Assembly: GCA_020059465.1 (NCBI GenBank)
Contig: JAGVBZ010000025.1
Span: 2,913 to 66,912 of the forward strand
Reading direction: 5' to 3'
Length of the DNA stretch: 64,000 bases
From: Brevinematales bacterium
GTDB lineage: Bacteria > Spirochaetota > Brevinematia > Brevinematales > GWF1-51-8
This document shows, piece after piece, positions 14,653 through 42,073 of this stretch. The stretch's first letter is position 1; every line of letters begins with the position of its first letter. Position numbers and translations under genes: made by a program. The notes below the pieces were generated by a model. That model was not told where the DNA came from. It searched no databases and saw nothing but the letters and a program-made list of their open reading frames with translations.

Positions 14653-14654
14653 AC

Positions 14655-22436: not shown

Positions 22437-22465
22437 TTGAATTCTTTAGGAAAAGAAGGTATAAT
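22437..22465 (+). promoter_or_regulatory. Sigma70-type promoter of the surface-protein locus
   Basis: TTGAAT (22437-22442), 17 nt, TATAAT (22460-22465), leaving a leader of about 115 nt before the TTG start at 22587. Confidence 0.55.
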
Positions 22466-22586: not shown

Positions 22587-25500
22587 TTGCAGTTAAGAAA
22601 GTTACTATTAGCTTTCTTTGTTGTAACCGGAACTGTGTCTTTAGCTTCTGCGGTCTGTATGAAAGGGGCGTACAATTCATGGACAAGCGTGAATTTTACC
22701 ACCACATACTCGCCGCCCGGGTATTGCCGGAACGTGATAACCGGGGTATCGCAGGGAAACACATTTATCGTCGGCGCGGGCATCAACGACGACTACACTA
22801 CTAAGTACTGCGGCGGTTATTGGGTTCCGGGTTCGGCCAATATGAACGCGGTATGGAGCCTGCCCGTCGGCGGCGCAGACGCGGCTTTCGATGGAGCGAA
22901 TTATTCACAGGTAAAAACTTATATCATTTTCGTATCGAGCACCGTCGCAAACGGCAACTTCGGTATCATGACCGTTTCCGGCAATCCAATCAATATTTCC
23001 GCAGTATCCGCGGGAACAGTTTACCCGCAATCCAATACTATAGTCAATCTCACCCTCTCCGGCGCGAAATGCGCGGAGGAAATCGTCTATATCCGTTACA
23101 GTACCAATAACTGGACGTCCTCGGCGTTCGTTCAGGCGACGGGCGGCGGTACCGCCTATACAGCCGTCGTACCCGGAATGCCCGGCGGTACTATTGTCAG
23201 GTACTACGCGCTGACCACATCGGCGAGTTCGGGAAACCTCGCGGCGAATCCCGACCTTCTCGCTATCAGCGTTAATAACAATAGCGGCGCGAACTATTCC
23301 TTTACTGTCCCGAAGACGACATGGCATACCGTTAAAATCGACGGGATAAACGATTTTTACACCAACGAGTGTTTCCCGACCACATCCGCAGGGTCGGGGT
23401 ATACCAACTGGATCACATGGGACAACAGCTATCTCTATATCGGATATAAGGGCGCGGATATCGCAAACGACCCCTTGGGGGCGGGAGTCCTCGTAATCTA
23501 TATTTCCACCAATACCAACACCGGGTCAGCGTACGGGGTATTGTATAATACGCAGAAACCCGTTCTGCCGTTCCGCGCGGATTACGTGTTCAATTTCGTC
23601 AACGATTACACATGGAACAGCGCGGTATGGAACGGTACCGCGTGGAACTGGAACTCGCCGTTCACCGTAATCACCGGCACCGACCTGAACCGGAACAGTA
23701 CCTATCTGGAATTCCGTATCAGCAAGTCCGACCTGAAGAATCCCGCAAATCTCGATATCTATCTTCAATTCGTGAAGAAAACCGTGGGTTTCGAATGGAC
23801 ACACGGCGCGGTGCCGTACAATACGCTGACCGACGGGTATAAAAGCAACCCGTCAAATTATATCTCCTTCAAGACGAATATCTGGAAGATCAGCAAACAG
23901 CCGTACCAATCCGCCTATAAAACTTTCGACCCCATTCCCCCGTACCAGAATATCCTGCGGTATCCCGTCAATAACCAGACGGTCTATTCCAACTACTCCC
24001 TGACAATGACCAATACCGCGCAGGATAAGATCGGGATATATAAAGTCGAATTTTACACCAATTACAACGGATTATACGGCACGGTCTATGTGACGAATTA
24101 CAACAGCAATTATACCAAAACTATTCCTCCGAACATCCTCAAACCCGGAACGAATCATTTCTACACGATCGCCTATGATACCCGGAATAAACTCTACTCC
24201 GCGACCAATACGGTAGTCGTCAAGGTGAATTCGCCGCCCCCCAAACCGGTGCTGACATTCCCGGTCAACGGCGATATGAACTTCTATCTCCTCAAGCCCC
24301 GGTTCAAATGGTATATAGGCGCGGATCCCGACGGGCAGGTAATATCCAATTACCAGATCATCGTCTCGATAAATTCGACACTGACCCCGCAGTACTTCAA
24401 TCATACCTTTGTCTCGACGTCGTCGAATTTCCTGACAATCTTCACCAATTACCTGCAGAATAACACTACTTATTACTGGTCGGTACGCGCAAACGACGGC
24501 ATCATATGGGGGCCGTGGTCGACTACCAATTATTTCCGGGTGAACCCCGCTTATATCAAGCTCGACGGCAGCCTGTCCGAATGGAACACATCCATCGGCG
24601 GAGTGAACACCGATTTCATCAGCAACGGGCAATGGATATGGAACGACAAGACGAACGACGCGGTGGTATCCGGCGACGCGCTGCCCTACGACCATCTCGA
24701 TATGCTGAAATTCGGGGTCACCGCCGATAAAAACTGTCTGTTCTTCATGTTCACCGTACCCGACCTGTCGGACGATGTGACCTACGACTCCCCACGCCCC
24801 TACATCAGCGTCTCGATCGACACGAACCTTGTAACCGGATCCGGGAATAACCAGACGGTCGAGAGCGAAGTGGGCACTCCCGCCGCCGCGAGATGGGAGC
24901 TTGAAATCATCGCGAATGTCGATGGAACCGGTTACTATACCGTTTCCGGGAGCACGACTAACTTTCACGAGTGCGGCGAAAACTGGATCACCCATTCGGC
25001 CCATCCCGGCCTGGGCGAGATCGCCATCCCGTGGGATGAGATGGGATTTAAATCGATCCCGCAGAAGCTGAATATTATCGTAAACACCGGGCGCGTAGTG
25101 GACGGCCTCGGGAATTACCATCTCCAGCCGATTTCCGGCGCGCCAAACTTCCTCGACTGTGTTTCCACCAACGATCCCGCGTCGGCGGAGTTTTCCGACG
25201 GGGTCAACAATATTTACATGAATATCTGCTTCAATACCAACGGATGCATCATCGAGACATCGTTCAAGGTCACCTGCCCGACCAACGCCCTCGCGGGAAT
25301 GCCGTTCCCGGTGGTGGTCAAAGCCCTTGCGCCGCTCGGCGGAAAGGTTTACGACTTCAACCGCGCGATCGTCTCCGCATTGTTATTCGGCGGTACGGCC
25401 TATGTCGTATCGAACACGGCATGGAAACAGGGCGTTTCCACAAACTATGTCGTCATCAATTACCTCGGTTCCAATAAAATCGTCATCCGCGACCAGCAGT

Positions 25501-27959
25501 TTACGAATATCGGCGGGATCAGCGGATGGATCGTGATCTACCGTCCCGACGTAGTCATAAACGAATTGATGTTCGACCCTGTCGGCGCGAATACCGACGG
25601 GCAATGGGTCGAACTGTTCAACCGCGAGAACAAGTCCGTATACCTGAACGGATGGGCTATTCACGATTACGACGTCGCCTTCCCGATGTATAAAATTACG
25701 AACGTAATAATTCTGCCGTCCTCGAATTATATCGTGCTGTGGGACGGGGCGGGTGTGAACGACCTCGATTTCTCCGACGGGCGCGGTATCCTCTACGGGC
25801 AATGGGGCGCGGCGCAGCTTTCGACCGCGCAGGACGAGGTCGGACTTTACTGCTCTTCTACGATGGAAAACCAGTACACCCTGATGGACTTTGTCGCTTA
25901 CGGGGCGGACGCGGGTACCGACGACGACCTTGCTGTGACGGCGGGCATCTGGACATCAGGCGCGTTCGCGTCGACGGCGCTCTACACCGAGGGGTCGTCC
26001 CTCGTACTTCTTCCCGACGGCGACGATCATAATCTCGCCTCCGACTGGACGGTCGACCATACCCCCACCCCGAAATGGGGCAATAAATATATCATCGCGC
26101 AGAATATTTCCAATACCGTGCAGACCAACGGCGCGTATGCCGGGACGATTATGCTGGCGTTCCAAATCCGGCTCCCCGACCCCGAGAACGACGCGGCCGC
26201 ATCGGGCGACCGTCTATCCAATATCGTCATCTGCCTCGGCGGGAATATCACGACCAACGGTATCCTCGAAGCCAAGCTCTGGAACGGCAACGGCGCGGGA
26301 CAGTTCAACTACGGATACCGGAATAACTCGGCGACCAACAACCTGCTGATGGGAACCGGGACTTATTCCAACGCGGTCAACGGATACGTATTCAAGAACC
26401 TCGCGAACAATCTCATCGCCGATTCGGCGGCGGGCGGATATATGACGGTCTATTTCTCGCTGAAGCTCGCGACCAATATCACCGCAGGGCAGACGGTCAA
26501 ACCCTTCATCCTGCCGAACAGTATCAGGATGCAGTCCGTGCCGGGCGAGTTTATCGGCCCGAAGGACAAAGGACTGACGAATTCGCAGTCGATGCCGATA
26601 AAACCCGGGTACTTTATCGTGTACGAGTACAGCGACGCGAAATGGGCGGGCGTAAACAGCTATCTCTACGACTTTATCGAAATATATAATAATTCCGCGG
26701 CCGGAATTACCCCGTCGGGATGGAATATATCGACCGCGCAGGGGAACGACAACCTCGCCTTCTTCCGGGGGTCGACGTTCGCGGCGGGTAATATGCTCCT
26801 GATATGCGGCGGGATAACCACAGCGCAGACGTTCACCAACTTCTACGCGGAGAATCCCTCGTCGCCGATCATGGCTCCCGCCTCCGGCACGAAGATCGCC
26901 CTGAACGGACTTGCCGCCGCGGATACGCCGTTTATCCTGCGCGAGAACACCACCATAATCGCAATCATTAATTATACGAACAATATTACAACCGCGAGCA
27001 ATACGGTCGAAATGATCAACCCGTGGGGAGGCCAGACCGCCGCGAATTATCAGGCGTCGTCGTATATCCATGGGACGCCGGGGTATCTCAACGGATTCCG
27101 GGCGATCGAAATGAGTCTCGCGAACGTATCCAACTACAGTCTCGATATCAATACGACAAACAACCTCGTGCTCGATTTCTCTATCCCGAACAATAACGGC
27201 GCGGCGGATACGCTGCAGATGATCACGATTAAGAATAACGCGACCGCGGTCAATACGGACGTGTCGTTCAAACTGTGGAAAGAGGGCGCGAGCGCGGGAT
27301 ACAACGGCGACGAGACGCTGGTCGGGAGCCTCACCTATCAGGGTTCCGGCCGATGGCAATGGAGCGGATCGACATCCATCCCGAATACGGGCGCGGTCAA
27401 GAAATGGAAATTCTATATTACAGCGGATGTGGCTCCGACGGTTCTGGACGGGAACATGGTCAAGCTCGGTGTGGAGGGGCTATCCCCGCCGGCGCCCGGC
27501 CCGTATACCGATAGTTTCACGATGGGCATCAAAGTTGCGAGCTGGAACGACGGCCCTGTCGACGGCGCTGTCTCAAATATATCGTACCAGATATGCGGCG
27601 TACCGTTCCTGACCCTTTCCAAAACGGTGCAGAGCGTTCAGGTAATGAATACCAACCTCGCACTGCCGGGGTCGCTCATCCTGTACAAGCTCGAGTATTC
27701 CAGCCTATCGAACGGACGGGCGTATCAGGTCGCGCTGTACGATAAAATTCCCGCTAACACCAAGTACTACACCAACTACGCGGGAACCGCCGCGGGATGG
27801 ACGGTGCAGTTCTCGCAGTTGGCAAATCCCGACCAGAGCTATAACTCATCCGACTATAACACAAATCCCACGAACGCGCTCTGGATACGCTGGAAAAAAG
27901 GGCTAGTATACCCGAACGAGGATAACCGGACGCTTTATTTAGGAGTAACATTAAACTAA
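22587..27959 (+). CDS. Giant secreted surface protein (1790 aa) with two lamin-tail-like domains, an FN3-like module and a C-terminal DUF11-type domain
   Basis: TTG start and a signal peptide ending ASA-V. LTD signatures are VVINELMFDPVGANTDGQWVELFNRENKSVYLNGWAI (about 25545) and DFIEIYNNSAAGITPSGWNIS (about 26670). The FN3-like segment is PPPKPVLTFPVNG...YYWSVRANDG. The DUF11-like end is LTLSKTV...PGSLILYKLEYSSLSNGRAYQVALYDKIPANTKY. Confidence 0.85.
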   Translation: MQLRKLLLAFFVVTGTVSLASAVCMKGAYNSWTSVNFTTTYSPPGYCRNVITGVSQGNTFIVGAGINDDYTTKYCGGYWVPGSANMNAVWSLPVGGADAAFDGANYSQVKTYIIFVSSTVANGNFGIMTVSGNPINISAVSAGTVYPQSNTIVNLTLSGAKCAEEIVYIRYSTNNWTSSAFVQATGGGTAYTAVVPGMPGGTIVRYYALTTSASSGNLAANPDLLAISVNNNSGANYSFTVPKTTWHTVKIDGINDFYTNECFPTTSAGSGYTNWITWDNSYLYIGYKGADIANDPLGAGVLVIYISTNTNTGSAYGVLYNTQKPVLPFRADYVFNFVNDYTWNSAVWNGTAWNWNSPFTVITGTDLNRNSTYLEFRISKSDLKNPANLDIYLQFVKKTVGFEWTHGAVPYNTLTDGYKSNPSNYISFKTNIWKISKQPYQSAYKTFDPIPPYQNILRYPVNNQTVYSNYSLTMTNTAQDKIGIYKVEFYTNYNGLYGTVYVTNYNSNYTKTIPPNILKPGTNHFYTIAYDTRNKLYSATNTVVVKVNSPPPKPVLTFPVNGDMNFYLLKPRFKWYIGADPDGQVISNYQIIVSINSTLTPQYFNHTFVSTSSNFLTIFTNYLQNNTTYYWSVRANDGIIWGPWSTTNYFRVNPAYIKLDGSLSEWNTSIGGVNTDFISNGQWIWNDKTNDAVVSGDALPYDHLDMLKFGVTADKNCLFFMFTVPDLSDDVTYDSPRPYISVSIDTNLVTGSGNNQTVESEVGTPAAARWELEIIANVDGTGYYTVSGSTTNFHECGENWITHSAHPGLGEIAIPWDEMGFKSIPQKLNIIVNTGRVVDGLGNYHLQPISGAPNFLDCVSTNDPASAEFSDGVNNIYMNICFNTNGCIIETSFKVTCPTNALAGMPFPVVVKALAPLGGKVYDFNRAIVSALLFGGTAYVVSNTAWKQGVSTNYVVINYLGSNKIVIRDQQFTNIGGISGWIVIYRPDVVINELMFDPVGANTDGQWVELFNRENKSVYLNGWAIHDYDVAFPMYKITNVIILPSSNYIVLWDGAGVNDLDFSDGRGILYGQWGAAQLSTAQDEVGLYCSSTMENQYTLMDFVAYGADAGTDDDLAVTAGIWTSGAFASTALYTEGSSLVLLPDGDDHNLASDWTVDHTPTPKWGNKYIIAQNISNTVQTNGAYAGTIMLAFQIRLPDPENDAAASGDRLSNIVICLGGNITTNGILEAKLWNGNGAGQFNYGYRNNSATNNLLMGTGTYSNAVNGYVFKNLANNLIADSAAGGYMTVYFSLKLATNITAGQTVKPFILPNSIRMQSVPGEFIGPKDKGLTNSQSMPIKPGYFIVYEYSDAKWAGVNSYLYDFIEIYNNSAAGITPSGWNISTAQGNDNLAFFRGSTFAAGNMLLICGGITTAQTFTNFYAENPSSPIMAPASGTKIALNGLAAADTPFILRENTTIIAIINYTNNITTASNTVEMINPWGGQTAANYQASSYIHGTPGYLNGFRAIEMSLANVSNYSLDINTTNNLVLDFSIPNNNGAADTLQMITIKNNATAVNTDVSFKLWKEGASAGYNGDETLVGSLTYQGSGRWQWSGSTSIPNTGAVKKWKFYITADVAPTVLDGNMVKLGVEGLSPPAPGPYTDSFTMGIKVASWNDGPVDGAVSNISYQICGVPFLTLSKTVQSVQVMNTNLALPGSLILYKLEYSSLSNGRAYQVALYDKIPANTKYYTNYAGTAAGWTVQFSQLANPDQSYNSSDYNTNPTNALWIRWKKGLVYPNEDNRTLYLGVTLN

Positions 27960-27970: not shown

Positions 27971-29446
27971 ATGAAATTACTCAGGACATGCATGCTGATG
28001 ATTTTACCCGCGCTCATTTTTGTCAACGCTTACGGCGCGATCAAAATCCAGTCCGTGATGCTGAATCAGCCCGATGCAAAAAATCTAATCGACGGCGATA
28101 AAAATACGCTTACAAAATTCAAGCCCGGCGAGAATATCCTCACGCTCCAGATGGGCGCGTTGAAGGATATCGGAGCGATCAAAATATTTTTACAGAAGGT
28201 AACCGAGTTTAAGAATTTCAAACTTTTTATATCCGACGATTTTATTTCCTGGTCAACTGTCGCGGAGTATAAGAATATCAAAAGCGATCTGATCGACGTC
28301 AAGGCTGAAAACATTTCCGCGATGTTCGTGAAAATCGTACTCGAGTCCGGGTCGGAATACGCCGTCCGGGAAATCGAGTGCTATGAGAAAGCGTCGGGGA
28401 AGAACGAAATAACCGATGTGAAAGTTTCCGGGGTTTCAGAAAGTTCCGCGGTCATCACATGGAAAACGAAGATCAAATCGCAGGACCATTTCCATTACCA
28501 GAAAAAGTATAACGGGAGTAAAGAGACGCTGATCGAGGTGAATTATATCACCAATCATTCGGTATCCCTGCAGGGGCTTGTGAAGGGCTCGGACTATAAC
28601 TTCGTGATAGTGAGCGAATCCCCCGACGGCACCCGTATCGAGAGCAAACAGTACGGATTCAAGACCCTCGGCATCCCTCTGCCGGAGTTCTGGCAGTTGA
28701 CCGCGAAAAATATTACCCCGTTCACCGCGAAGCTCTTCTATGAGTCGAATGTACCCGTCTCGTACGAGATCTTTTTCGGTCAGTCCCCCGACGGGATGAA
28801 AAAGCTTAAGGAAGACAAAGGACTTGCGGCATCGCGGGATATCGATATCACTGGGTTACAGCAGGAGACGGCCTATTATTATCAGCTTTACCTGAGGGAC
28901 GCGCAGGGCAACGTCATCAAAACCCCGCCGCTGAGCTTTGTCACCCCGCCGGACAATATCGCGCTCGGTAAAAAAGTATGGGGCACGTTCAATTACGTCG
29001 ATCCGACTATCAAGGAACTCGGCTACGGCGAGACGTCGATCGACAAACTCACCGACGGGAGCCTGAACTACTTCGGCGGGATGGCGATCTCGTTCAACGC
29101 GGACAATTCCGACCAGTACGCGGTGATCGACCTCGGCAGTATATCCGCGATCAAACGGCTGGATATCTACTGGTGGGCGTTATCGTTCAGTAAGGACTAC
29201 CGGATCGACGTGAGTATCGACGGGAAGTCGTGGAAAACGCTGAAAGAGCATCTGGACGCATCGCAGGGCTCGGATATGCGCTCCCCGATGGGCGACTATA
29301 TCGTCCTGCACTCCGTCCCGCTTGACACGGCCGCGCGGTTTGTCAGAGTATATATCACGGCGAAAGCGCCCCGGGGAACACGGGAGAAAAAATGGCAGCC
29401 GTGGAAGAACCTGTTTATATGTGAGATTGCGGTAATTGCAAAATAA
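27971..29446 (+). CDS. Secreted protein: discoidin (F5/8 type C) domain, two FN3 modules, second discoidin domain
   Basis: Signal peptide. The first discoidin-like domain ends VREIECYE. FN3-like segments include SAVITWKTKIKSQ and ETAYYYQLYLRDAQGN. The second discoidin-like domain includes IDLGSISAIKRLDIYWW and ends ICEIAVIAK. Confidence 0.8.
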   Translation: MKLLRTCMLMILPALIFVNAYGAIKIQSVMLNQPDAKNLIDGDKNTLTKFKPGENILTLQMGALKDIGAIKIFLQKVTEFKNFKLFISDDFISWSTVAEYKNIKSDLIDVKAENISAMFVKIVLESGSEYAVREIECYEKASGKNEITDVKVSGVSESSAVITWKTKIKSQDHFHYQKKYNGSKETLIEVNYITNHSVSLQGLVKGSDYNFVIVSESPDGTRIESKQYGFKTLGIPLPEFWQLTAKNITPFTAKLFYESNVPVSYEIFFGQSPDGMKKLKEDKGLAASRDIDITGLQQETAYYYQLYLRDAQGNVIKTPPLSFVTPPDNIALGKKVWGTFNYVDPTIKELGYGETSIDKLTDGSLNYFGGMAISFNADNSDQYAVIDLGSISAIKRLDIYWWALSFSKDYRIDVSIDGKSWKTLKEHLDASQGSDMRSPMGDYIVLHSVPLDTAARFVRVYITAKAPRGTREKKWQPWKNLFICEIAVIAK

Positions 29447-29630: not shown

Positions 29631-30686
29631 ATGAAAATCAGAAGAAGCCTGGTATCGCTAGCCCTGCTGACGGGCGCGATCACTGCTGTGCTGGTGATGT
29701 CGCCGTTCGGCGGACGCAGCGCGGAAGCCGCGCCTACCCCGGCGGGCACACCGATCACCAACACCGCCACCATGACATGGGGCGGAGGTATGTCCACCAA
29801 CGTGGCTACCACTATGCCGCGCGTCGGTACCAACTATGGGGGAACATGGTCGGGTAACAACAGTACGAATGTCGCACCCGGTACGCATTCGTACAACAAG
29901 ACCTCGTTCGTAAACGACGGAAACCTTGCGGTCAACTTTCAGTTCAGCGCGGGTGAATTTCATTCCGCCGCGCAGTGGGGTTCATGGTTCTATGAATACA
30001 CCAATACCGCCACTACCGCTCACGGTTTGCCTCTTACGGTAAGCATGTCGCCTCAGGCTGTGGTCACCACCCTTTGGTTCCATGTGTATGTGCCGGGCGC
30101 CGAAATCGACTCGTCCTACGCCCAGTTCAAATGTGTAGCCACCGGGCCGAACACCACCGCTATTGCCACGAACTATACGGGCTACAACGCTCTGCGCTAC
30201 GGCGGAAATATGGGGAAATGGGCCGCCGGCTTCGGTAAGGTTATCCTGACGAACACTACGGGTTCGGGCAACACGAACTGGAGAGTAACCGTACAGGCGG
30301 CCGTCATGGCGCTGACCAAGTATTTGATCATTTCGAACGCCGGGCCTTTCGCCACGGATACCACACGCCCGTTCCCCGGCGGCATCCTGATCTGGCGCCT
30401 GAATTATTCCAACGGCGGATCGGTTCCCGCGACAAGCGTTAAGATTGTCGACGTGTTCAACACGAACTTTGTGACGCTGAATATTAACAGTCTGAAGTCC
30501 AACACCTGGGGTTCGCCCTATCCGTGGGCCGCGGCCGCGTTTACAACCAACGCCGTAGGAGACCCGGGTGCGTCCACCAACGGCGCCAGCGTGATCTTCG
30601 CCCCGTTCACCACCACTCCGCTTAACGGCAGTACGGTCGGGGCCGGCGGTAAAGGCGCGTTTTACTACGTGAACTACGTGAAGTAA
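29631..30686 (+). CDS. Secreted DUF11-like protein (possible abundant structural subunit)
   Basis: AGGAGG at 29620-25, 5 nt before the ATG. The signal peptide ends AEA-A and is followed by PTPAGTPITNTATMTW. Composition is T/N/G/A-rich and visibly GC-richer than neighbours. Confidence 0.65.
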   Translation: MKIRRSLVSLALLTGAITAVLVMSPFGGRSAEAAPTPAGTPITNTATMTWGGGMSTNVATTMPRVGTNYGGTWSGNNSTNVAPGTHSYNKTSFVNDGNLAVNFQFSAGEFHSAAQWGSWFYEYTNTATTAHGLPLTVSMSPQAVVTTLWFHVYVPGAEIDSSYAQFKCVATGPNTTAIATNYTGYNALRYGGNMGKWAAGFGKVILTNTTGSGNTNWRVTVQAAVMALTKYLIISNAGPFATDTTRPFPGGILIWRLNYSNGGSVPATSVKIVDVFNTNFVTLNINSLKSNTWGSPYPWAAAAFTTNAVGDPGASTNGASVIFAPFTTTPLNGSTVGAGGKGAFYYVNYVK

Positions 30687-30779: not shown

Positions 30780-31784
30780 ATGAAATTTTTAGGGCTTATA
30801 CTATTTTTTCTCCCTGTGTTATGCTGGAGCAGTGTTCTATTAAAATATCAGGACGGGTGGTCTGCCGTATTGCGGCTTGACAATATGAAATCGTTATCCA
30901 AGCCCGTCGTATTCATCATCTATCATAAATCCATGACCAATTCCGCAATGATGATCGGCGATTCGCCGGAACATACGGTTCCGCTGACCCTGCCCGCCGG
31001 GGAGTGCGCCTATCAGGTGAAGGACGCGAATAAAAAAATTATCGAGCAGGGAAAACTATCCCTGAGCCTCCCGGTCGACGTAAAAATAAAATCCGTAGAA
31101 CCGAAAAAGGTCACTTTCAGCCTCTCGTCCGCGCAGGACATATTTGTCGAATGCTATCTGACGACCAATAATACGATCGCGCACTACCAGAGAATCGAGT
31201 TGAAAAAGCAGGGCGAGGCCGTGTTCTCCGGGTTGGCGTCCGGGACGGAATTTAAGGCCGAATTCAAGGTCAAGGATACCGCCTTCTCGAAATCGTTCAC
31301 TACCCCGCTTTTCAACGCCGCCCTCCATAAGCCGGTCTCCGGTACATTCAACCGTCTCCCGGAAAGCAAATTTGTCGACGATTCCACCCCCGCTATCACG
31401 AGGGTCAACGACGGGCTAGTGGAATGGTATAAGGGGATGGCGGTCAGCACGGAAGTGGGAATGGAAGCCCAGTATGTGATTATTAACCTTCTCGGCACGC
31501 ATCACCTGAAGAGCATGAAGGTCACATGGAACGCCAATTACTACCCGTTATCCTATTATATCATGTACAGCATGGACGGGGTGAAATGGGATTATTTCGA
31601 GCGGAAGGAGAAGGATTATCAGGCTTCCGCCGCGCCGGATAATTCTCCCATCAGGGTGGATGAATTCCCGGTATCGTTCGACGCGGGTTATATCGGGGTA
31701 TGGATCGATAAAAACGCCGCAATCCACGCACATCAGGATTATAAGAATTACTTACAATTAATGGAGATAGAGGCCTATGAATAG
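30780..31784 (+). CDS. Secreted protein with C-terminal discoidin (F5/8 type C) domain
   Basis: Signal peptide. The C-terminal half reads NAALHKPVSGTF...VIINLLGTHHLKSMKVTWN...LMEIEAYE. Confidence 0.7.
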   Translation: MKFLGLILFFLPVLCWSSVLLKYQDGWSAVLRLDNMKSLSKPVVFIIYHKSMTNSAMMIGDSPEHTVPLTLPAGECAYQVKDANKKIIEQGKLSLSLPVDVKIKSVEPKKVTFSLSSAQDIFVECYLTTNNTIAHYQRIELKKQGEAVFSGLASGTEFKAEFKVKDTAFSKSFTTPLFNAALHKPVSGTFNRLPESKFVDDSTPAITRVNDGLVEWYKGMAVSTEVGMEAQYVIINLLGTHHLKSMKVTWNANYYPLSYYIMYSMDGVKWDYFERKEKDYQASAAPDNSPIRVDEFPVSFDAGYIGVWIDKNAAIHAHQDYKNYLQLMEIEAYE

Positions 31785-33009
31785 GCTCGCGCTGATACTT
31801 CTGCTTGTCGTCTGCACCTGCACGCTGTCTCACGGGGCCGCCGGAACCCCTTCGGGAACTGTCCTCTCCAACATCTCCCGGATGGACTTCTATTACTGGG
31901 GTATCCCTTTCACGAATTATATTATGGATACGTCGCTGACAATGGGCAGTATCTACGGTATAGACGGAATCTATTCCCTCCCCGCGTATAACGGCTACCC
32001 GAATTATTCCGTGCGTATCGACCTGTATATGACCAACCTCGGGAACGACGCGGATAACGACGCCGATTTATTCGTCTCATCGTTCTCGAACTCCCCCGGC
32101 TATACGGCATCGCCGTGGAGTTACCATTTCGAGGTATTGTCGGTCAATGTCGGAACGAATTACTCGATCCCGTTCGCGCTTTTCGGGGTGGGCGCGGTAT
32201 TCCACGCGGTACTTGTGGTGGATATCCCCGCCGACGCCCCGACCAACTCGATGGGGTATTTCACTATCGGCGGTACGACGCTCAGCAACTCGAACCATGT
32301 GGCGGGAACATACACCGGATACAACGGGCTACCGTACGGCGGTAAGACACAGGCCGGAACGATGTTCACCGTGCGGGTGATCCCGCCGAACCGGATTGTC
32401 GACCTCTACGCGAGCGACGCGATCGATACGATCCGCCTTTTCGACGGGACTCTGTACCTGCGGAAGATCGAGAATTTTATATACGCACTGCTGAGGAATA
32501 CACCTGTCCGCGCGACCACGGTCAACCTGTGGTACGCGGTCGACAGTCTCCCGGACGGCCCGGGCGGGAATCCGGACGACGCGAGCGTACCGATGATCGA
32601 AATCTCGCAGAACCTGTATCAGGCGAAGATTCCCGAGAGCGCGGTCAAGTCCGGCAACTTCACGGCGTTTTTCCTCGAGATCGACGGGCTGAACTATATC
32701 ACGAACTTCACTTATCTATTGAAGGGCGTATACGAACAGGGTTATGAGACGATTGTGATGAATAATATTATCCCGCCGGGCTCGGCATATATCAAACTCC
32801 CCGACAAGACGCTCGGCAAACCGGGCAAGATTACCGTATACTCGATAGCGGGCGATATCGTACGCCACATATTCGACGGCGATATCGGGAATACGTTGTA
32901 CGGATGGGACGGTACCGACGATCAGGGCTTCATGGCGCAGACAGGGATATACTTCATCGTCGTCGATATCGAGAATCTGAAAGAAGTACGTAAAATTATG
33001 GTGAAATAG
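31777..33009 (+). CDS. Secreted protein with FlgD-Ig / T9SS-type C-terminal domain
   Basis: Overlaps the upstream gene by 8 nt. The signal peptide is followed by AAGTPSGTVLSNISRM. The C-terminus ITVYSIAGDIVRHIFDG...GWDGTDDQGFMAQTGIYFIVVDIENLKEVRKIMVK matches the FlgD_ig/CTD pattern. Confidence 0.7.
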   Translation: MNRLALILLLVVCTCTLSHGAAGTPSGTVLSNISRMDFYYWGIPFTNYIMDTSLTMGSIYGIDGIYSLPAYNGYPNYSVRIDLYMTNLGNDADNDADLFVSSFSNSPGYTASPWSYHFEVLSVNVGTNYSIPFALFGVGAVFHAVLVVDIPADAPTNSMGYFTIGGTTLSNSNHVAGTYTGYNGLPYGGKTQAGTMFTVRVIPPNRIVDLYASDAIDTIRLFDGTLYLRKIENFIYALLRNTPVRATTVNLWYAVDSLPDGPGGNPDDASVPMIEISQNLYQAKIPESAVKSGNFTAFFLEIDGLNYITNFTYLLKGVYEQGYETIVMNNIIPPGSAYIKLPDKTLGKPGKITVYSIAGDIVRHIFDGDIGNTLYGWDGTDDQGFMAQTGIYFIVVDIENLKEVRKIMVK

Positions 33010-33018
33010 GAGAACGGT

Positions 33019-34170
33019 TTGAACCGGAACCTGAGACCGCGAGCCGCCGGATTAATCCTGAGCCTGACATTTGTCTTCATTACTCTATCATATCCGCTGA
33101 CATCGGAATCGGACTTCCTGAAGATTCCGAAGAGCGCCCGCGCTATCGGCCTCGGCGACAGCTATACGTCCATTATCGGCGACACCACCGCGATCGAGTA
33201 CAATCCCGCCGCGATGAATACGATCGATAATCTCGCGCTGTCGTTCATGTACCAGTCGTGGATCGATAACGCTTATGCGTGCTATTTCTCCGGCGCGATG
33301 AAGATATACGACTTCGTGATCGGTACGAGCCTGTACTATGTGGATTACGGCGGGTTCAGCCATTACGACTCCTACGGGATGCTCCTGTCGGAGTATCAGC
33401 CCCACGATATCTGCTGGAAGGCCGCGATATCGATGGACGGCGGACTGCTGTTCGATTTCCTGACCGGGTTCTCGGTCGGTATAGGCGCGGGAGTGATCGG
33501 CAGGGGATTGGCGGACTTCGGGACATGGGGACTCACCGTCGATCTGGGGATCAATTACACGTTCACCCTCCAGCGGCTGGGATTCAAGTATGACGGCGAA
33601 TTATTCAGGATGCCGATCAACGCCGGATTCGCTATCCAGAACATCGGGTTTACCGGGGATTCGACCGCGCCCCTCAAGGGGACGCTCGGCATATCCGCCG
33701 GACTGGCGAAGGGACTGTACCTGTCGATGGATGTCGCGATCGAGTACGGCCGCCCGTTCCTGTATAAAATGGGTATCGAATACACTCTCTTCAATATATT
33801 AATACTGCGTACCGGGTTCAATCTCGGAAGGGACACCGGTAATCTCGCGTTCGGCCTCGGCCTGCGCTATCCGGAGTACTTCAACGACCTCCGGCTGGAT
33901 TACGCATTCTCGTATCTGGATACCCTCGGGAATAACCATAACTTCTCGGTGTATGTCGATTTTCCCGTTTTCGTCGACCATGTATCGCAGTACTATCAGC
34001 AGGGAATCTATCATTATCTTCATGGCGACTATGAGCTTGCGAAGGAGAAATGGCTAAAGGCGCTCGCTATTGATCCCGAAAATAAACTGGTACAGAAGAA
34101 GCTCCACGATCTGGAAAAACTGATGAAGCTCAATCAAATGATCGAGAATGAAAAAGGGATGTCGAAATGA
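33019..34170 (+). CDS. PorV/PorQ-family-like outer-membrane beta-barrel with C-terminal TPR motif
   Basis: TTG start. FLKIPKSARAIGLGDSYTSIIGDTTAIEYNPAAM matches the conserved PorV/PorQ N-terminal motif. Alternating G/aromatic strands follow. The tail YYQQGIYHYLHGDYELAKEKWLKALAIDPEN is a TPR unit. Confidence 0.7.
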   Translation: MNRNLRPRAAGLILSLTFVFITLSYPLTSESDFLKIPKSARAIGLGDSYTSIIGDTTAIEYNPAAMNTIDNLALSFMYQSWIDNAYACYFSGAMKIYDFVIGTSLYYVDYGGFSHYDSYGMLLSEYQPHDICWKAAISMDGGLLFDFLTGFSVGIGAGVIGRGLADFGTWGLTVDLGINYTFTLQRLGFKYDGELFRMPINAGFAIQNIGFTGDSTAPLKGTLGISAGLAKGLYLSMDVAIEYGRPFLYKMGIEYTLFNILILRTGFNLGRDTGNLAFGLGLRYPEYFNDLRLDYAFSYLDTLGNNHNFSVYVDFPVFVDHVSQYYQQGIYHYLHGDYELAKEKWLKALAIDPENKLVQKKLHDLEKLMKLNQMIENEKGMSK

Positions 34171-36428
34171 AAATCCGTTACCTGCTTTCTCTGCTGATAT
34201 TCATTGCGGGACTCGCGTACAGTCAATCCGATCCCGGCGGCTACGACAAGGCTCTCGAATGGTATAACAAGAAGCACTATGTCAAATCGGTCGAAATACT
34301 CAAGGAGTATATGGACAATTTCCCTCTCGACCCCCGCGCGCCCGAACTGCTGGAAAAGATGTATGAGAAGTACACAGAGTTCCAGATCGTCTATCTGCAG
34401 GGCAAGGAATTTTATAATAAAAAACTCTACCTGAAAACGATCGAGGAGTTTTCCAACGCGCTGAAAGTGGGTTTCAGCGATAAACTACAGTTCTACCTGA
34501 CCGAATGTATCCGCACCGTATTCGAGCTTGAGAACGGGTTTGTGCCGAGCACGGTCGCCGAGACCGCCGAGAGCCTGACCATCTCGTGGAATAGCGATCT
34601 CCTGACCAACGCCCGCGTCGTATTCGTGAAAAGCGAAAATATCCCGCTTCTCAATATGATCCATTACCTCAACGAGAACAAGATACCCGTCGCGCGGCTG
34701 GAAAAATATTTCACGCAGGGGAATATATTTAAATCGTTCACGGTGAACGGAACCAGCGTAACCGTCTCGAAAAATCAGCCCGCCGAATCCTTTCTCGTTA
34801 TCGTCTACCCCAAGACCGTGGAGGACGTCCGTTCCCAGCCCATCATCCGCATGGTAGTCACCAAGGAGCCGTCGATCCAGAATAAATTTCTCATGCTCGA
34901 ACCGATCCGCGATATCCCGCTCCTGCCGCTGTATACCAATATCCATATCATCATACCCGGCCAGCCCGAACATACGACCACCAATGTGACCGGTATTCTG
35001 ACGAAATACAGCAACCTGATCATCAGCCTGAATACAAACTCGATAACCAACCTGACTAACGGCAGTCTGACTAACGCCTACCTCAATGCCAGCGGGATTA
35101 AAACCGTTAACGGATGGGGCGCTTTCCCATGGTGGCTGCTGATTATCCTGCTACTGATTATCCTGCTTGTCCTGACGGGTTTAATTCTCCGGGAGAAACG
35201 GCGGCGGGAACTTGCAGGAAAAATCGAACAATGGAAAATGGAGAACGAGTACGATCTCACGGATGACGGCGCGGAGAAGAAATCCCCCGTGTTCAAGAAA
35301 AAGCCTGCGCCGAAAAAGAGCGCCCAACAGTTGAAAAAGCCCCTGCAGCAGGAAAAAAAGCCCGTACAGAAGAAAAGTTCGCCATCCGGAAAGAAATCCG
35401 CACCTGCCAAGCCGAAGCCCAAATCGGGTAACGCCCCGTCGCGCCCGAAGGGGAAGAAACTCCCCGCGGTCATTGTGCTTATTCTCAGCGGGGTAATCGC
35501 CGTATCCGCGCAGGAATTCACCGACGCCCCGGGATGGCGGGATTACGCGCAGAAGTCGCTCGCTCCAGTTGTATGGAATTATTATGTCGAACACGCCGGG
35601 ATTACCAACCTCCCGCAGTCCTACTATGACAACATCGCAAAATTCTACTCGTTTGAGAAAAGCGCACACCTGCCCCAGCATTACCTGAAAACCCTCGATT
35701 TCCTCCGCGAAACCGCGAATTATCTCCGAAATATATCGTCGGTCTATTTCAGGAATTTCGATTACGAGAATTACGCCCTGACATCGTTCATGGTGTATTA
35801 TATCGATAAGGATTATTCGTTTTTCTCGCAGTCCATCTCGGAACTGAAAAAAGCCAAGACGGAAGCGATAGCGGATAAGATATTACAGAAGAGCATCGAG
35901 TTTGAAAAAAAGGGGCTGTACCTCGGCGCAATTGTCCGAATCACCGGATATATGTCGTTATCGGCGAATATACAGCCCGATCTTTTTCAGCGCCTGAACG
36001 ACCTCTACGCGAAGAATAAAAAGGAAATATCGCAGTACGAGTACTTATCCGCGACCGCGCGGATCAATAAAATCCTTTATGACGGCGAAATCCCGGCGGT
36101 AATCAAGGATATCCTCTGTCTGAGGGAAACATTCGAATACGAGGCGCAGTTCGGTCCGTTGGAATCGTTCAGTTTGTTAAGGAAGGATGCGGTCGAATTC
36201 CTGCGTCTGAACTACCGGATTCTGCTTTACAACGACCTGCTCACCGAAGGATATAAATGCTACCTGAACTGTCAGCTTCAGCCCGCGAAGGAATGCTTCG
36301 AACTGGCGTGGCATATCGCCCCGAAGAAGGAATTGCTGCCTTCCATCGGAAGCAATATCGCGATGGTCAAGGGCGCGATGAGCGGAAAGGGAGTGCATAT
36401 CTATATCACCAACGCGCTTATTCCCTGA
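34167..36428 (+). CDS. Bitopic envelope protein: TPR/FN3-like N-half, TM, Lys/Pro-rich loop, second TM, unknown C-half
   Basis: ATGA overlap with the barrel gene, and a signal peptide. TPR-like YDKALEWYNKKHY; LTISWNSD (FN3-like); TM WWLLIILLLIILLVLTGLIL; KKPAPKKSAQQLKKP...PKPKSG; second hydrophobic segment LPAVIVLILSGVIAVSA-QE. Confidence 0.65.
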   Translation: MKIRYLLSLLIFIAGLAYSQSDPGGYDKALEWYNKKHYVKSVEILKEYMDNFPLDPRAPELLEKMYEKYTEFQIVYLQGKEFYNKKLYLKTIEEFSNALKVGFSDKLQFYLTECIRTVFELENGFVPSTVAETAESLTISWNSDLLTNARVVFVKSENIPLLNMIHYLNENKIPVARLEKYFTQGNIFKSFTVNGTSVTVSKNQPAESFLVIVYPKTVEDVRSQPIIRMVVTKEPSIQNKFLMLEPIRDIPLLPLYTNIHIIIPGQPEHTTTNVTGILTKYSNLIISLNTNSITNLTNGSLTNAYLNASGIKTVNGWGAFPWWLLIILLLIILLVLTGLILREKRRRELAGKIEQWKMENEYDLTDDGAEKKSPVFKKKPAPKKSAQQLKKPLQQEKKPVQKKSSPSGKKSAPAKPKPKSGNAPSRPKGKKLPAVIVLILSGVIAVSAQEFTDAPGWRDYAQKSLAPVVWNYYVEHAGITNLPQSYYDNIAKFYSFEKSAHLPQHYLKTLDFLRETANYLRNISSVYFRNFDYENYALTSFMVYYIDKDYSFFSQSISELKKAKTEAIADKILQKSIEFEKKGLYLGAIVRITGYMSLSANIQPDLFQRLNDLYAKNKKEISQYEYLSATARINKILYDGEIPAVIKDILCLRETFEYEAQFGPLESFSLLRKDAVEFLRLNYRILLYNDLLTEGYKCYLNCQLQPAKECFELAWHIAPKKELLPSIGSNIAMVKGAMSGKGVHIYITNALIP

Positions 36429-36738: not shown

Positions 36739-37302
36739 ATGAAAAGACACGTTATTGCAGTATTAGCACTGGTTGGGTTAGTTTTAGCAGGGTGTGGTTC
36801 ACAGGATAAGGCCGCTGAAAAGAGCGGCGGTGCTGTCGAAGGGAAGGCCGGGAATATAGCCTCCGTTAAAAAGGGCGGAACGCAAACTTATGCGAACATT
36901 TCGATAACTGTTCCAGCTGATTGGGAAGTCAGCGAAGAAGAGAACCTTGTTCGTGTTTACAGCCCCGGCGATACAGTTCTTCTTCAGATCGAGGAATTTT
37001 CCTCAGAGTCATGGAAAGATTATGTAGCAAAGGCTGAGAAAAAAATGACCGAATACCTGAAGAACGATTTGGGCTCCGAATACAAAGTCAGTAAGAAAGG
37101 CGAAGAGAAGATAAACGGTATCAATACCTATTACTTCAATTATTCCTATGAAGATCCCGACTACGGCAAGGCGATATGCTATACTTATGCTGTAGAAACC
37201 GGCAAAGGGATAACCATGCTCACATTCGATGTACTCGAAGAAGGCCTCAACGATTATAAGAAAGCTATGGGCGACATCAAAGCAAGTTTAGCGGTAAAAT
37301 AA
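36739..37302 (+). CDS. DcrB/PsbP-fold-like (DUF1795-type) lipoprotein, single-domain paralog
   Basis: Perfect lipobox LAGC. Domain motifs are ISITVPADWEV, YSPGD, INGINTYYF, YGKAICYTYAVETGKGITMLTFDVLEEG and DIKASL. The architecture parallels E. coli DcrB by hand comparison. Confidence 0.65.
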   Translation: MKRHVIAVLALVGLVLAGCGSQDKAAEKSGGAVEGKAGNIASVKKGGTQTYANISITVPADWEVSEEENLVRVYSPGDTVLLQIEEFSSESWKDYVAKAEKKMTEYLKNDLGSEYKVSKKGEEKINGINTYYFNYSYEDPDYGKAICYTYAVETGKGITMLTFDVLEEGLNDYKKAMGDIKASLAVK

Positions 37303-37345
37303 GAATAATAATCAAGCATAACATTTCATAACCCGGGAGGTTGTG

Positions 37346-40300
37346 ATGAAGATATTTTTTACAGTACTTGTAACAGTTTTATGCGCTTTGAACGGCGGTT
37401 TTGCCGAAAGGATACGCGCGGTTTCACAATGCGGCTTCTCGAAAGAACCCGTGTACGATATGCGTGATTTTTCCTGTATACCTATGGCTAAAACAGACAG
37501 CGCGGAATCGATGAATAAATATACGGTTTCCGGGGCGCATATCGAATTATCTTTTCCCGGCGACTGGCAGGTGAACGCGCAGAAAAACACACTGAGCGCT
37601 TACTCTCCCGGGGATATTGTCCTGTTTTATGTTGATCCGTTCGAACTCGGCCAAGGTAAAGACCTGAAGTCCTCGATGAAAAGTTATATCGAGCAGGAAT
37701 ACGCCGGAGACGCGCTTGAAATCGGGAATTTCAGCGCAGTGACGGTGGGCGAGTTCAAAGCCAACTCATGGACATTCTCTTATGTTGACGGCGAGTACGG
37801 AAAGGCGTCGGTCATGCTGATAGTCATCGAGACTAAAAAAGGAATGGCCATGCTGACTGTCGATATGCTGGAGGATGGGAAAAAAGAGTACCAGCCGCTT
37901 ATCGATAAGATCCTCGCGACTGTAAAGTATTCCGAGGGTTCCGCTGATGTGGAAGTCGACGGTAAAATGTATACCCATGCCAAATCAGGACTGAAAGTCT
38001 GGATACCCGCATCATGGGATACCCTGAACGACGTCAACCGTCTCGATTCATATTCCGACGGAGACGTCGCGCTGATTATCGTTGAAAAACTTTCGGATAA
38101 GTCTTGGAAGGATTTCAGTAAAAAAGCGTACGATACTTTGAATGACTATATCGCGGACGATATCGGCGACGATTTTGAAGTAAAATCCAAGGGCGAGACC
38201 GAAATCAACGGGATGAAAGCCTACAAGATCGAATACGAGTATATCGACGGAAGCTACGGGAAGGCGATCTCGATGTCTGTCGCTCTCGAAACAGAGAAGG
38301 GTATCGCGGTATTCACCTACGATATCCTCGAGGATGGGCTAGACGAGTACCTGCCGATAGCCAAAAAGATGGTTGCCAGCCTCGTTCAGGCGTCTCAAGA
38401 GACCGACGGGGGCCAAACGAAACCCCTCGATTCCGCCGCTCAGAATTATGTCGTAAAAGGCACATACCTCGAACTGAATATCCCTACCGATTGGCAGGTG
38501 GATAATTACTCGGGCAAACTCTCCGGGTACTCACCGAACGATACGGTACTTCTGTATGTCGAGAGGATGAACGATAAATCGTTCGGCGATTATCAGTCGA
38601 AGGATGAATTAAAGACCGATCTGGAAAAATTCGCAAAGGGCGAGTATAGCTATAAACTCACATTCGGTAAAATAAAGGATACGAAAGTCGGCGGCATGTC
38701 CGCTGTTTCTATGCCGTTTACCTATCATGACGATTCCTACGGCGATATTTCCTGCGAGTACTACGGTATCGATACCGGAAAGGGTATTTCTACCATTATT
38801 TTTGATACTCTCGAAGAGGGCGGAAGCGAATATGAGCAGATCAACGCCGGCATACTCGCAAGCGTCAAATTCAACGACTCCGGTCCGGGCGAGACAGTCG
38901 AGCCTGATGCCGAGAAATCGGGAACCAAGCTCTATGTGGCTGGGTCATCCTGTATCGAACTGAAAATCCCGGCAAACTGGGACGTGGATAACTCGCCGAA
39001 TAAACTTTCGGGATATTCTCCCAACGATACGGTTCTGTTATACGTCGAGCCGATGAATAATAAATCGTTCGACGATTATAAAAGTGAACAGGAGTTTCTC
39101 GACGACTTCAAGAGTTTCGCGAAAAACGCCTACAGCTATGATCTGACATTCGGTAAAGCGGAGCAGACTGAAGTAGGCGGGATGGACGCCGTATCGCTGC
39201 CGTTCAGCTACTATGACGAATCCTACGGCGATATCCACTGTCAGTACTACGCTATCGATACCGGAAAAGGTATCGCCACTATCATCTTCGATACGCTGGA
39301 TGATGGCGGAAGCGAATACGAGCAGATCAACGCGGATATTCTTGCAAGCGTCAAATTCAATGACTCCGAGTATTCCGACAGCGGGAACGTAACAGTGGAT
39401 TCTACCCCGGGCGAGTATAAGCATGCTAAGTCTCATCTGATGCTGACTATCCCCAAGGATTGGTCGACATCCGCGTACGATTCCGACTTGAGTTCCTATT
39501 CGCCGAATTCGTCGATTATTCTGTATATGCTTCCCCTGAACAACAAGGCGTTGAAGGACTATAAGAAAAACGCCGATCTCCTGAAGGAAGTGGACAAGGC
39601 GCTGAAAGACCGTTACTATTCAAGTATGGACTATAAGCTTCAGGACAAGGGTAAGGAAAAAGTCGGCGGAATGGATGCGATGAAGTTCTTTATGACCTAC
39701 TCCGATTCGACGTTCGGCGAGATCGATGTCACCGTACATGCAATCGACACCGGTAAGGGTATCACTCTGGTCATTTTCGACGGTATCCGTAAAGAGGCGG
39801 AACCCTATCAGGAAGCGATTGCCGGGATTTTAGCAAGCATCAAGTTCTACGACGAAAAAGCGGCGCCTGTCGCGGACGATACATCGATCGATGTCAATAA
39901 ACTTTCCGGCAAGTATTATCAGGTCAAAGCATCGCGGTTAAAAATCTGGATACCCAATGATTTCGATGTGTACAGCGAACAGTCGGGGTCGACTCAGTAT
40001 GATTACCAGTTCTACACCGGTTCGCGCGACGGCGCGGTCATTCTGAAAATCTACACTTATCAGGACGATTATCTCAACATTCAATCGCTTGACAGTAAAA
40101 CCGTACTGATCGATTTCCTGAAGAATGCCGGGTTTGATACGCTTGTCGTCAAAGGGGCGAAAACCGCTAAGTTTAACGGGAAGGACTCTTTGATCATCGA
40201 CTTCACTTATATGGTGGATCAGAACCTGACTGCTGTTTGCCGCGCGGTTGCAATCGATACCGATAACGGGATCAGCGTCTATGTTGAAGATATACTTCAG

Positions 40301-40402
40301 CCCGATCTGAAGAAGTATAAAGATGTCATGGGCAAGATTTCCGGGTCTGTCGAAGTGATCCGTGTTCTGTATGACGGTACCCAGCACCCGTGGGCGAAAT
40401 AA
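37346..40402 (+). CDS. Secreted protein with six tandem DcrB/PsbP-like domains (1018-1019 aa)
   Basis: ATG 37346 follows GGGAGG, while the track uses GTG 37343. Six units of about 150-160 aa each carry hxhxhPxxW, YSP(G/N)D, (I/V)(N/G)GM, YG(K/D)(A/I), (E/D)TGKGI, FDxLE(E/D)G and ILAS(V/I)K. Confidence 0.8.
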   Translation: MKIFFTVLVTVLCALNGGFAERIRAVSQCGFSKEPVYDMRDFSCIPMAKTDSAESMNKYTVSGAHIELSFPGDWQVNAQKNTLSAYSPGDIVLFYVDPFELGQGKDLKSSMKSYIEQEYAGDALEIGNFSAVTVGEFKANSWTFSYVDGEYGKASVMLIVIETKKGMAMLTVDMLEDGKKEYQPLIDKILATVKYSEGSADVEVDGKMYTHAKSGLKVWIPASWDTLNDVNRLDSYSDGDVALIIVEKLSDKSWKDFSKKAYDTLNDYIADDIGDDFEVKSKGETEINGMKAYKIEYEYIDGSYGKAISMSVALETEKGIAVFTYDILEDGLDEYLPIAKKMVASLVQASQETDGGQTKPLDSAAQNYVVKGTYLELNIPTDWQVDNYSGKLSGYSPNDTVLLYVERMNDKSFGDYQSKDELKTDLEKFAKGEYSYKLTFGKIKDTKVGGMSAVSMPFTYHDDSYGDISCEYYGIDTGKGISTIIFDTLEEGGSEYEQINAGILASVKFNDSGPGETVEPDAEKSGTKLYVAGSSCIELKIPANWDVDNSPNKLSGYSPNDTVLLYVEPMNNKSFDDYKSEQEFLDDFKSFAKNAYSYDLTFGKAEQTEVGGMDAVSLPFSYYDESYGDIHCQYYAIDTGKGIATIIFDTLDDGGSEYEQINADILASVKFNDSEYSDSGNVTVDSTPGEYKHAKSHLMLTIPKDWSTSAYDSDLSSYSPNSSIILYMLPLNNKALKDYKKNADLLKEVDKALKDRYYSSMDYKLQDKGKEKVGGMDAMKFFMTYSDSTFGEIDVTVHAIDTGKGITLVIFDGIRKEAEPYQEAIAGILASIKFYDEKAAPVADDTSIDVNKLSGKYYQVKASRLKIWIPNDFDVYSEQSGSTQYDYQFYTGSRDGAVILKIYTYQDDYLNIQSLDSKTVLIDFLKNAGFDTLVVKGAKTAKFNGKDSLIIDFTYMVDQNLTAVCRAVAIDTDNGISVYVEDILQPDLKKYKDVMGKISGSVEVIRVLYDGTQHPWAK
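38444..39366 (+). repeat. Internal tandem duplication (domain copies 3 and 4, period about 486 nt)
   Basis: Copy 3 spans 38444-38880 and copy 4 spans 38927-39366. They share long nucleotide runs, e.g. GGCGGAAGCGAATA(T/C)GAGCAGATCAACGC and GCAAGCGTCAAATTCAA(C/T)GACTCC. Protein identity is roughly 70% by eye. Confidence 0.8.
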
Positions 40403-40480
40403 ATATTTTCATGAACAGTTGAATTTTTTATGGATAGATGATACATTAATGTATACAAACTTAACTCCAAGGAGACCGAT

Positions 40481-40978
40481 ATGAAAAGAGTACTTTTGGG
40501 TGTTTTAGCTTTAGTTGTTTTCGCAACCGTAGGCGCTTTTGCAAAATTGTATAAGTTCAAATCCGGCAATTTGCAGGTTGATATCCCTTCCGATTGGGAA
40601 GTCGAAAATACCTCAGGTAAGCTTTCTGCCTATTCCCCCGGCGATGTGGCTTTGTTCTTCATCGAAGAATTTTCCGAAGCCGCGGATGCGGATGACGAGG
40701 ATGCAGGAAAGCAGTTGATCCTCGATTATATCACCGCCGATATCGGCAGCGATTATGAAACCGGCGAAACCGGCTTCGAGACCGTGAACGGACTGGATAT
40801 CTATTATGTCGATTATACCTATGATGACGAGAGCTACGGCACCGCGATCTGCACCACCTTTGTGATAATGGCGGGCGACAGCTATTCTATCGTAACCATC
40901 GACGTGCTGGAAGACGGCTACGATGATTATGAAAAAGTCATGGATAAAATTGTCGGCAGCCTCAAAAAGATAAAATAA
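40481..40978 (+). CDS. DcrB/PsbP-like secreted paralog, single domain
   Basis: Signal peptide ending AFA-K, then LQVDIPSDWEV, YSPGD, VNGLDIYYVDYTYDDESYGTAICTTF and VLEDGYDDYEKVMDKIVGSLKK. Confidence 0.7.
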   Translation: MKRVLLGVLALVVFATVGAFAKLYKFKSGNLQVDIPSDWEVENTSGKLSAYSPGDVALFFIEEFSEAADADDEDAGKQLILDYITADIGSDYETGETGFETVNGLDIYYVDYTYDDESYGTAICTTFVIMAGDSYSIVTIDVLEDGYDDYEKVMDKIVGSLKKIK

Positions 40979-40994
40979 TTACTCGAACATGTAT

Positions 40995-41026
40995 CCGGGG
41001 AACGGTTATGCCGTTCCCCTTTTTTC
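40995..41026 (+). terminator. Rho-independent terminator
   Basis: GGGGAACGG-TTATG-CCGTTCCCC followed by TTTTTT. Confidence 0.75.
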
Positions 41027-41068
41027 ATGTTTACCGGATAAAATTTCAGTACCTGACAGGACGACAAT

Positions 41069-42064: not shown

Positions 42065-42073
42065 GCCCGTCGG

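Follow-up and report, generated by a model that had tools for sequence, protein, structure and literature searches.

In a 64-kb stretch of Brevinematales DNA (Spirochaetota; hereafter the window, to which counts for the organism's own genome refer) we find two adjacent genes. One, g5, encodes a secreted 410-aa protein ending in an immunoglobulin (Ig)-like domain, and the other, g6, an outer-membrane β-barrel of the PorV/PorQ family that runs on into a tetratricopeptide repeat (TPR) tail. As our best explanation, held with about even confidence, g5 and g6 may serve as dedicated partners in an anchoring pair like PorZ-PorQ or PorU-PorV, in which the barrel would be a tether and not a shuttle. 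Surface loops of the barrel would bind the uncleaved Ig-like domain of g5 and keep g5 on the cell surface, and g5, with its paralogue g3, would probably hold the other secreted, lectin- or adhesin-like products of the operon there. The TPR unit would dock a periplasmic or inner-membrane partner, g7 where it occurs and a fused CBM48 domain in its stead in sister lineages. Were g5 to stay in the periplasm, the analogy with PorQ-PorZ would fail. The data establish to which family the barrel belongs, the homology and fold of g5's C-terminal domain (CTD), the conservation of the operon and the recurrence of the adjacency in several phyla. Recognition of CTDs by barrels of the PorV family is seen as a trait of type IX secretion (the T9SS) in Bacteroidota and the FCB superphylum, and the Brevinematales lie outside the phyla from which a T9SS has been reported (PMC4793230, PMC11205867, PMC12421860). 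Our literature search found no paper on PorV- or PorQ-like proteins or a T9SS in spirochaetes or Brevinematales, on such pairs or on this operon, and both proteins are annotated as hypothetical in public records.

A PorV/PorQ-family barrel beside a protein with a sorting-type domain

The features of the pair are as follows.

31777..33009, + strand: g5, the 410-aa candidate 'cargo', with a signal peptide and three predicted β-sandwich domains
32785..33006, + strand: C-terminal Ig-like domain of g5 (residues 337-410), of the predicted T9SS type A / FlgD_Ig class
33019..34170, + strand: g6, 383 aa, an outer-membrane barrel of the PorV/PorQ family that ends in a TPR tail, TTG start
33100..33963, + strand: plug segment and β-barrel of g6 (residues 28-315), from signature, AlphaFold2 (AF2) model and profile match
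33979..34161, + strand: g6 residues 321-381, a helical and putatively periplasmic tail in which a single TPR unit is followed by a long capping helix

Both open reading frames (ORFs) lie where a first-pass annotation of this DNA had placed them, and the peptide strings quoted there are present. Between the two genes lie 9 nt (gagaacggt), and a GGAG-like ribosome-binding site spans the stop codon. The barrel gene shares an ATGA with the gene that follows (34167..36428). Gap and overlap are both as described earlier.

As judged from its sequence, g6 belongs to the PorV/PorQ family in the broad sense without being an orthologue of either PorV or PorQ. It scored 99.6 bits against the NCBIfam family model PorV_fam (NF033709; cutoff 90), with residues 31-315 aligned to model positions 4-326, and all 17 barrel orthologues matched the same model. 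It fell short of the cutoffs of all the models for individual members. The PorQ equivalog (NF033711) gave 69.5 bits over residues 21-184 only and, since its cutoff is 220, g6 is not taken for a PorQ orthologue; the PorV equivalog (NF033710) gave 28 bits (cutoff 250) over the N-terminal 112 residues only, and the PorV2 model 32.5 bits (cutoff 325). Among the specific models PorQ outscored PorV for g6 and likewise in all 17 orthologues, the best of which reached E 2e-22 against NF033711. The earlier assignment of the barrel to PorV/PorQ is thus upheld at the level of the family.

A closer relation to FadL, named in the first-pass annotation as what would refute this assignment, was not found. 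The barrel family profile matched Flavobacterium johnsoniae PorV (6h3i_F) in the PDB at E 1e-25 and the FadL-type channel TbuX at E 4.6e-4, and no match to FadL/Toluene_X (PF03349) was seen at E ≤ 0.01 in any of the 17 orthologues. In the AF2 model of g6, built with 25 homologues (pLDDT 82, pTM 0.72), an N-terminal plug segment of helical form precedes the strands, which DSSP counts ambiguously as 14 long ones and a short hairpin, and three helices follow at the C-terminus. Its best folds in the PDB by Foldseek were PorV from SprA complexes (8gl6_F and 6h3i_F; E 3e-13 and 1e-11; TM-score 0.58-0.64). TodX, FadL and the Bacteroidota protein BamG ranked lower, at TM-scores of 0.39-0.47 (TodX and FadL at ~0.45, E 1e-8 to 1e-6). 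Throughout the barrel family the N-terminal signature TSxxDFLKIPxSARAxxLGxSYT...YNPAA does not vary. UPF0164 (PF03687), the family of treponemal FadL-like outer-membrane proteins, for which a transport role has been proposed, gave 12.6 bits with g6 (E 0.058; cutoff 21.4) and matched 9 of the 17 orthologues (best E 3.3e-6); a TP0856-type barrel (P0024) was a distant match at E 1e-5. BamG (9hiv_F, TM-score 0.39), a 14-stranded barrel of the FadL family with a surface protein, BamH, on its extracellular loops (PMC12578637), is a much weaker structural match; it is bound to BamA, and its partner is a lipoprotein lacking a CTD.

As an unlikely alternative, g6 may be an uptake channel of the FadL type for hydrophobic or amphipathic compounds, as proposed for the TPR-bearing proteins of Treponema pallidum. 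The upstream genes would then encode functionally separate glycan-binding proteins of the surface or periplasm, and the last domain of g5 would be just another Ig-like module. The FadL-superfamily fold, the UPF0164 matches and the TPR bundles of the treponemal proteins speak for this reading. The profile and fold comparisons above speak against it, and it leaves unexplained both the CTD proteins encoded beside such barrels in five phyla and the tight translational coupling seen here. For the treponemal proteins no partner gene with a CTD is described.

The three helices of the tail span residues 321-334, 338-351 and 356-381 in the AF2 model. Pfam TPR_2 (PF07719) scored 25.0 bits on g6 (cutoff 27; residues 325-355) and matched 13 of the 17 orthologues (best E 1e-7), and the family profile also matched consensus TPR proteins. 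The unit is kept in all 17, with G329, W345 and A348 invariant, and the TPR tail described in the first-pass annotation is real. Coming after the final strand of a barrel with an even number of strands, the tail would by outer-membrane topology lie in the periplasm. The tail was further extended by a CBM48/AMPK1_CBM domain in 7/17 orthologues, and on distant PorV-family barrels the tail consists of several TPRs in Krumholzibacteriota and of an OmpA domain in Stahlbacteria. Three FadL-like outer-membrane proteins of Treponema pallidum (TP0548, TP0859 and TP0865), which are 14-stranded, also carry C-terminal TPR helical bundles on the periplasmic side (PMC8407342). A TPR-tailed barrel is thus not unique. 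A docking role for the tail would offer a possible function for the TPR tails of spirochaetal FadL-like proteins, syphilis vaccine candidates among them.

In a reading that we hold to be less likely still, the operon may build a periplasmic or envelope-spanning assembly, in which g5 and the lectin-like proteins would stay in the periplasm, the TPR tail instead of the barrel loops would bind g5 or g7, and the barrel would be no more than an anchor point in the outer membrane. In its favour, TPR units are docking modules for proteins and this one is invariant in the family, the tail is replaced or extended by CBM48 in sister lineages that have lost g7, which suggests a variable function at the periplasmic end, and the window shows no known export route across the outer membrane. 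Against it, discoidin, fn3, LTD and Ig domains are typical of extracellular proteins, the CTD in solved T9SS complexes binds PorV on its extracellular loops (PMC10994853), and in other phyla the CTDs beside barrels belong to giant adhesin-like proteins.

The C-terminal domain of g5 is, on profile evidence, a β-sandwich of the T9SS type A / FlgD_Ig class, at threshold in the single protein and clear at the level of the family. Against TIGR04183 (Por_Secre_tail, cutoff 23) g5 gave 21.1 bits as a full protein and 23.3 bits with the last 120 aa alone, and against FlgD_ig (PF13860) 22.8 bits, below the 27-bit gathering threshold. Its homologues number only nine, all from this operon type; seven match TIGR04183 (best E 2e-6), eight match FlgD_ig (best E 2.9e-9); two match the PorU C-terminus and two that of PorZ. 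No match of g5 itself to the PorZ model was found at E ≤ 1. For the class named in the first-pass annotation the evidence is thus clear at family level, the single protein staying around the threshold. In the AF2 model of g5 (pLDDT 66) strands fall into blocks at residues 76-200, 205-316 and 337-410, and the last 70 residues reach a pLDDT of 80-91.

The domain runs to the very end of the protein. Invariant in the nine orthologues are W377, G390, Y392, R405, K406 and V409 (...EVRKIMVK), K406 being four residues from the C-terminus. In type A CTDs a near-invariant and functionally important lysine contacts PorV in solved substrate complexes (PMC10994853), and by its position in the sequence K406 matches this PorV-contacting residue. 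The fold is nevertheless a generic module: an exhaustive search with the CTD profile hit 40,073 cluster representatives, the best of them giant proteins with 5-21 internal tandem copies, and the domain by itself does not prove a role in sorting or anchoring. A CTD role is indicated by its terminal position, the conserved lysine and the genomic context. As a separate observation, the highest scores with the CTD profile were those of giant proteins (P0039-P0057) with 7-21 internal tandem FlgD_Ig-like copies.

Recurrence of the pair in Brevinematales and other phyla

Closest of all are proteins of 'Spirochaetes bacterium GWF1_49_6' (~90% identity) and GWF1_51_8 (72%), followed by those of Brevinematales metagenome-assembled genomes (MAGs). 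The order g5 then g6 is kept in every Brevinematales relative sampled (loci L009, L001, L024, L006, L004, L007, L011, L013 and L018), at protein identities of 26-89%, so the two genes are not neighbours by accident. A chance ORF or an annotation artefact is likewise rejected, since orthologues persist at identities as low as 26%. The order g1-g6 is kept in L001, L024, L004, L007, L011 and L013, while L009 and L006, which are limited by their contigs, retain g2/g3-g6. L018 has a minimal cluster of a g3-like gene, g5 and a barrel with TPR, at 26-28% identity; its g3-like gene was recognised by motif inspection only, tblastn giving no match there. Wherever a sampled Brevinematales locus covers the operon, its gene order is retained.

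Six-frame translations of the window and of the fetched loci were scanned with hidden Markov models (HMMs) of the CTD and of the barrel. Each Brevinematales locus has one CTD protein, always before the barrel, and one barrel. No second CTD protein or barrel paralogue was found in the window or in the sampled Brevinematales flanks, a limited sample and not a genome count. A single CTD and a single barrel per locus fit a dedicated one-to-one pair over a general shuttle. We hold the shuttle-and-cargo reading of the first-pass annotation to be improbable; g5 would be exported through a SprA/Sov translocon encoded elsewhere in the genome, and its CTD would then be removed. The PorV/PorQ family of the barrel, PorV as its best solved match and the type A likeness of the CTD with its conserved lysine speak for that reading, and the spirochaetal host, the low PorV equivalog score, the lone CTD protein and the strict co-conservation of the pair speak against it. 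Among the window genes that were scanned, none matched a T9SS core component. A word-indexed search with the CTD profile for further CTD proteins in these MAGs returned three fragments only and was uninformative.

We also inspected distant PorV-family barrels with readable surroundings, which form the comparison set below.

L014, Elusimicrobia: CTD protein of 645 aa immediately upstream, gap 0; no barrel tail noted
L017, Rhodothermia: CTD protein of 645 aa immediately upstream; no barrel tail noted
L019, Krumholzibacteriota: giant CTD protein of >2,660 aa (1-7991) immediately upstream of the barrel (8001-9890); TPRs as tail
L021, Stahlbacteria: giant CTD protein of 1855 aa (418-5985) immediately upstream of the barrel (6001-7491); OmpA as tail
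L020, Elusimicrobia: CTD protein two genes downstream; TPR as tail
L015, uncultured bacterium: CTD protein ~4 kb upstream; no barrel tail noted
L022, treponemal type: no CTD protein, TP0855-like neighbour; no barrel tail noted
L023, metagenome contig: no CTD protein; no barrel tail noted

For four of five neighbouring CTDs the best match was the C-terminus of PorZ or PorU: PorZ at 60.9 bits (L014), 45.7 bits (L020) and 20.1 bits (L017), and PorU at 23.7 bits with PorZ at 23.6 (L021). The CTD of L019 matched best that of a T9SS-dependent metalloprotease (35.9 bits), followed by PorU (29.3) and PorZ (29.1). Two proteins of the T9SS keep their CTDs uncleaved: PorZ stays bound to PorQ, and PorU to PorV (PMC10947112). 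Aligned with hhalign, the CTD family of g5 matched CTDs that other phyla encode in one locus with a PorV-family barrel, mostly right beside it, with a probability of 98% and E 2e-13.

In function the locus would most resemble PorQ-PorZ of the Porphyromonas gingivalis attachment complex, a stable and uncleaved pair, and PorV with its sortase PorU. From PorQ-PorZ it differs by its spirochaetal host, the TPR tail and the adjacency of the two genes within a larger operon, and from PorV by the TPR extension, the absence of any sign of many cargos and an operon lacking a peptidase. PorZ is built on β-propellers, and porU and porV are adjacent in P. gingivalis. Cognate pairs of barrel and CTD protein are already known within the T9SS, where type B CTD proteins are encoded beside PorP/SprF-like barrels of their own that anchor them, for example SprB-SprF and PG1035-PorP (Gorasia et al. 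2022, cited in PMC10947112). The genetic logic is that of g5 and g6, with another barrel family, another CTD type and dependence on a T9SS translocon.

As a less likely and more far-reaching possibility, docking of a C-terminal Ig-like domain onto a PorV/PorQ-family barrel may be an autonomous module for surface display or export that needs no T9SS translocon and is spread over Spirochaetota, Elusimicrobiota and candidate phyla, with the barrel's periplasmic tail (TPR, CBM48 or OmpA) as its link to the envelope. The T9SS would then have recruited a recognition pair that already existed, and Brevinematales would use it to assemble a surface complex rich in lectins. If these lineages lack the translocon, the pair would bear on how a non-lipoprotein reaches a spirochaete surface and stays there, and on the origin of the T9SS sorting signal. 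If they carry a full T9SS, the finding would shrink to a taxonomic extension with an unusual fused tail.

In the treponemal-type locus L022 a TP0855-like gene (Pfam TP_0855_helical and TP_0855_C) stands divergently beside a UPF0164 barrel (2859-7341). This layout mirrors the TP0855/TP0856 neighbourhood of T. pallidum, and the L022 barrel is a distant homologue of g6.

The operon and its surroundings

Rather than the minimal two-gene unit proposed in the first-pass annotation, g5 and g6 belong to the distal end of an operon of six to seven genes that begins at 22587. The remaining features of the operon are these.

22437..22465, + strand: sigma-70-like promoter match upstream of g1, TTGAAT-17-TATAAT, 10/12, a consensus match only
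22587..27959, + strand: g1, a secreted giant of 1790 aa with Ig-like, CBM-like and two lamin-tail domains and a DUF11-like C-terminus
27971..29446, + strand: g2, secreted, 491 aa, F5/8-type-C (discoidin), fn3 and F5/8-type-C domains
29631..30686, + strand: g3, secreted, 351 aa, a paralogue of the N-terminal domain of g5
30780..31784, + strand: g4, secreted, 334 aa, C-terminal F5/8-type-C domain, overlapping g5 by 8 nt
34167..36428, + strand: g7, a 753-aa membrane protein with signal peptide, a transmembrane segment at ~320-342, a Lys/Pro-rich stretch at 343-430, a second hydrophobic segment at 431-449 and a C-terminal domain (hydropathy scan)

All seven proteins start with a signal-peptide-like sequence, as judged from the translations. 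The junctions g4/g5, g5/g6 and g6/g7 measure -8, +9 and -4 nt, and g4, g5, g6 and g7 are translationally coupled. No peptidase or sortase model of Pfam or NCBIfam matched any of the seven.

Elsewhere in the window, the genes that were scanned comprise housekeeping, Bat-like, flgI, ABC and kinase genes. At 36739-42604 (+ strand) six consecutive genes encode one paralogous domain of ~140-165 aa, in proteins of 187 aa, 1019 aa (six tandem copies), 165, 119, 174 and 176 aa that are 19-42% identical to one another; the 187-aa protein, the member that was scanned, had no Pfam match, and the array also follows the operon in GWF1_51_8 (L001). A clear homologue of FlgI, the flagellar P-ring protein, lies at 17856-18872 on the - strand (Pfam 228 bits); a preprint describes genes for the P-ring as sporadic in the phylum (10.1101/2025.07.04.663154). 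A BatB-like protein with vWA and TPR domains at 14704-16407 (+ strand), whose neighbours at 11964-17826 had no family match, may mark a Bat operon of the aerotolerance type just upstream of the surface-protein operon.

The upstream products g1, g2 and g4 are lectin- or adhesin-like. In g1 Pfam found the lamin-tail domain (LTD, 76 bits) and Ig_Rha78A_N (33.5 bits). Its orthologues measure 1705-1841+ aa in L001 and L024 and ~437-440 aa in L004 (3493-4815) and L007 (3680-4993); residues ~244-551 are the sole part conserved among relatives, and we therefore take the part with the lamin-tail domains for a lineage-specific expansion. The discoidin and fn3 domains of g2 scored 74 bits (F5_F8_type_C) and 38.9 bits, and g2 was found in all full-length relatives. 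The F5_F8_type_C domain of g4 (33.3 bits) and the second of the two in g2 share 30% identity. For g3, which is kept in relatives, no match was found in Pfam, NCBIfam or the PDB; blastp aligned it with g5 at 27% identity over 201 aa (E 0.002, in a database of the operon only).

In g7 the second hydrophobic segment (...AVSA|QE), which comes after the ~90-residue Lys/Pro-rich stretch, looks like an internal signal peptide. By tblastn, g7 homologues follow the barrel in the window, L009, L001 and L006, four of the six loci with a TPR-only barrel; L024 has a 678-aa gene in this position, L018 has no g7, and the gene is missing from the four loci in which the barrel carries a CBM48/AMPK1_CBM domain. 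This suggests that g7 and the fused CBM48 may be alternative periplasmic partners. As for g3, no match to g7 was found in Pfam, NCBIfam or the PDB.

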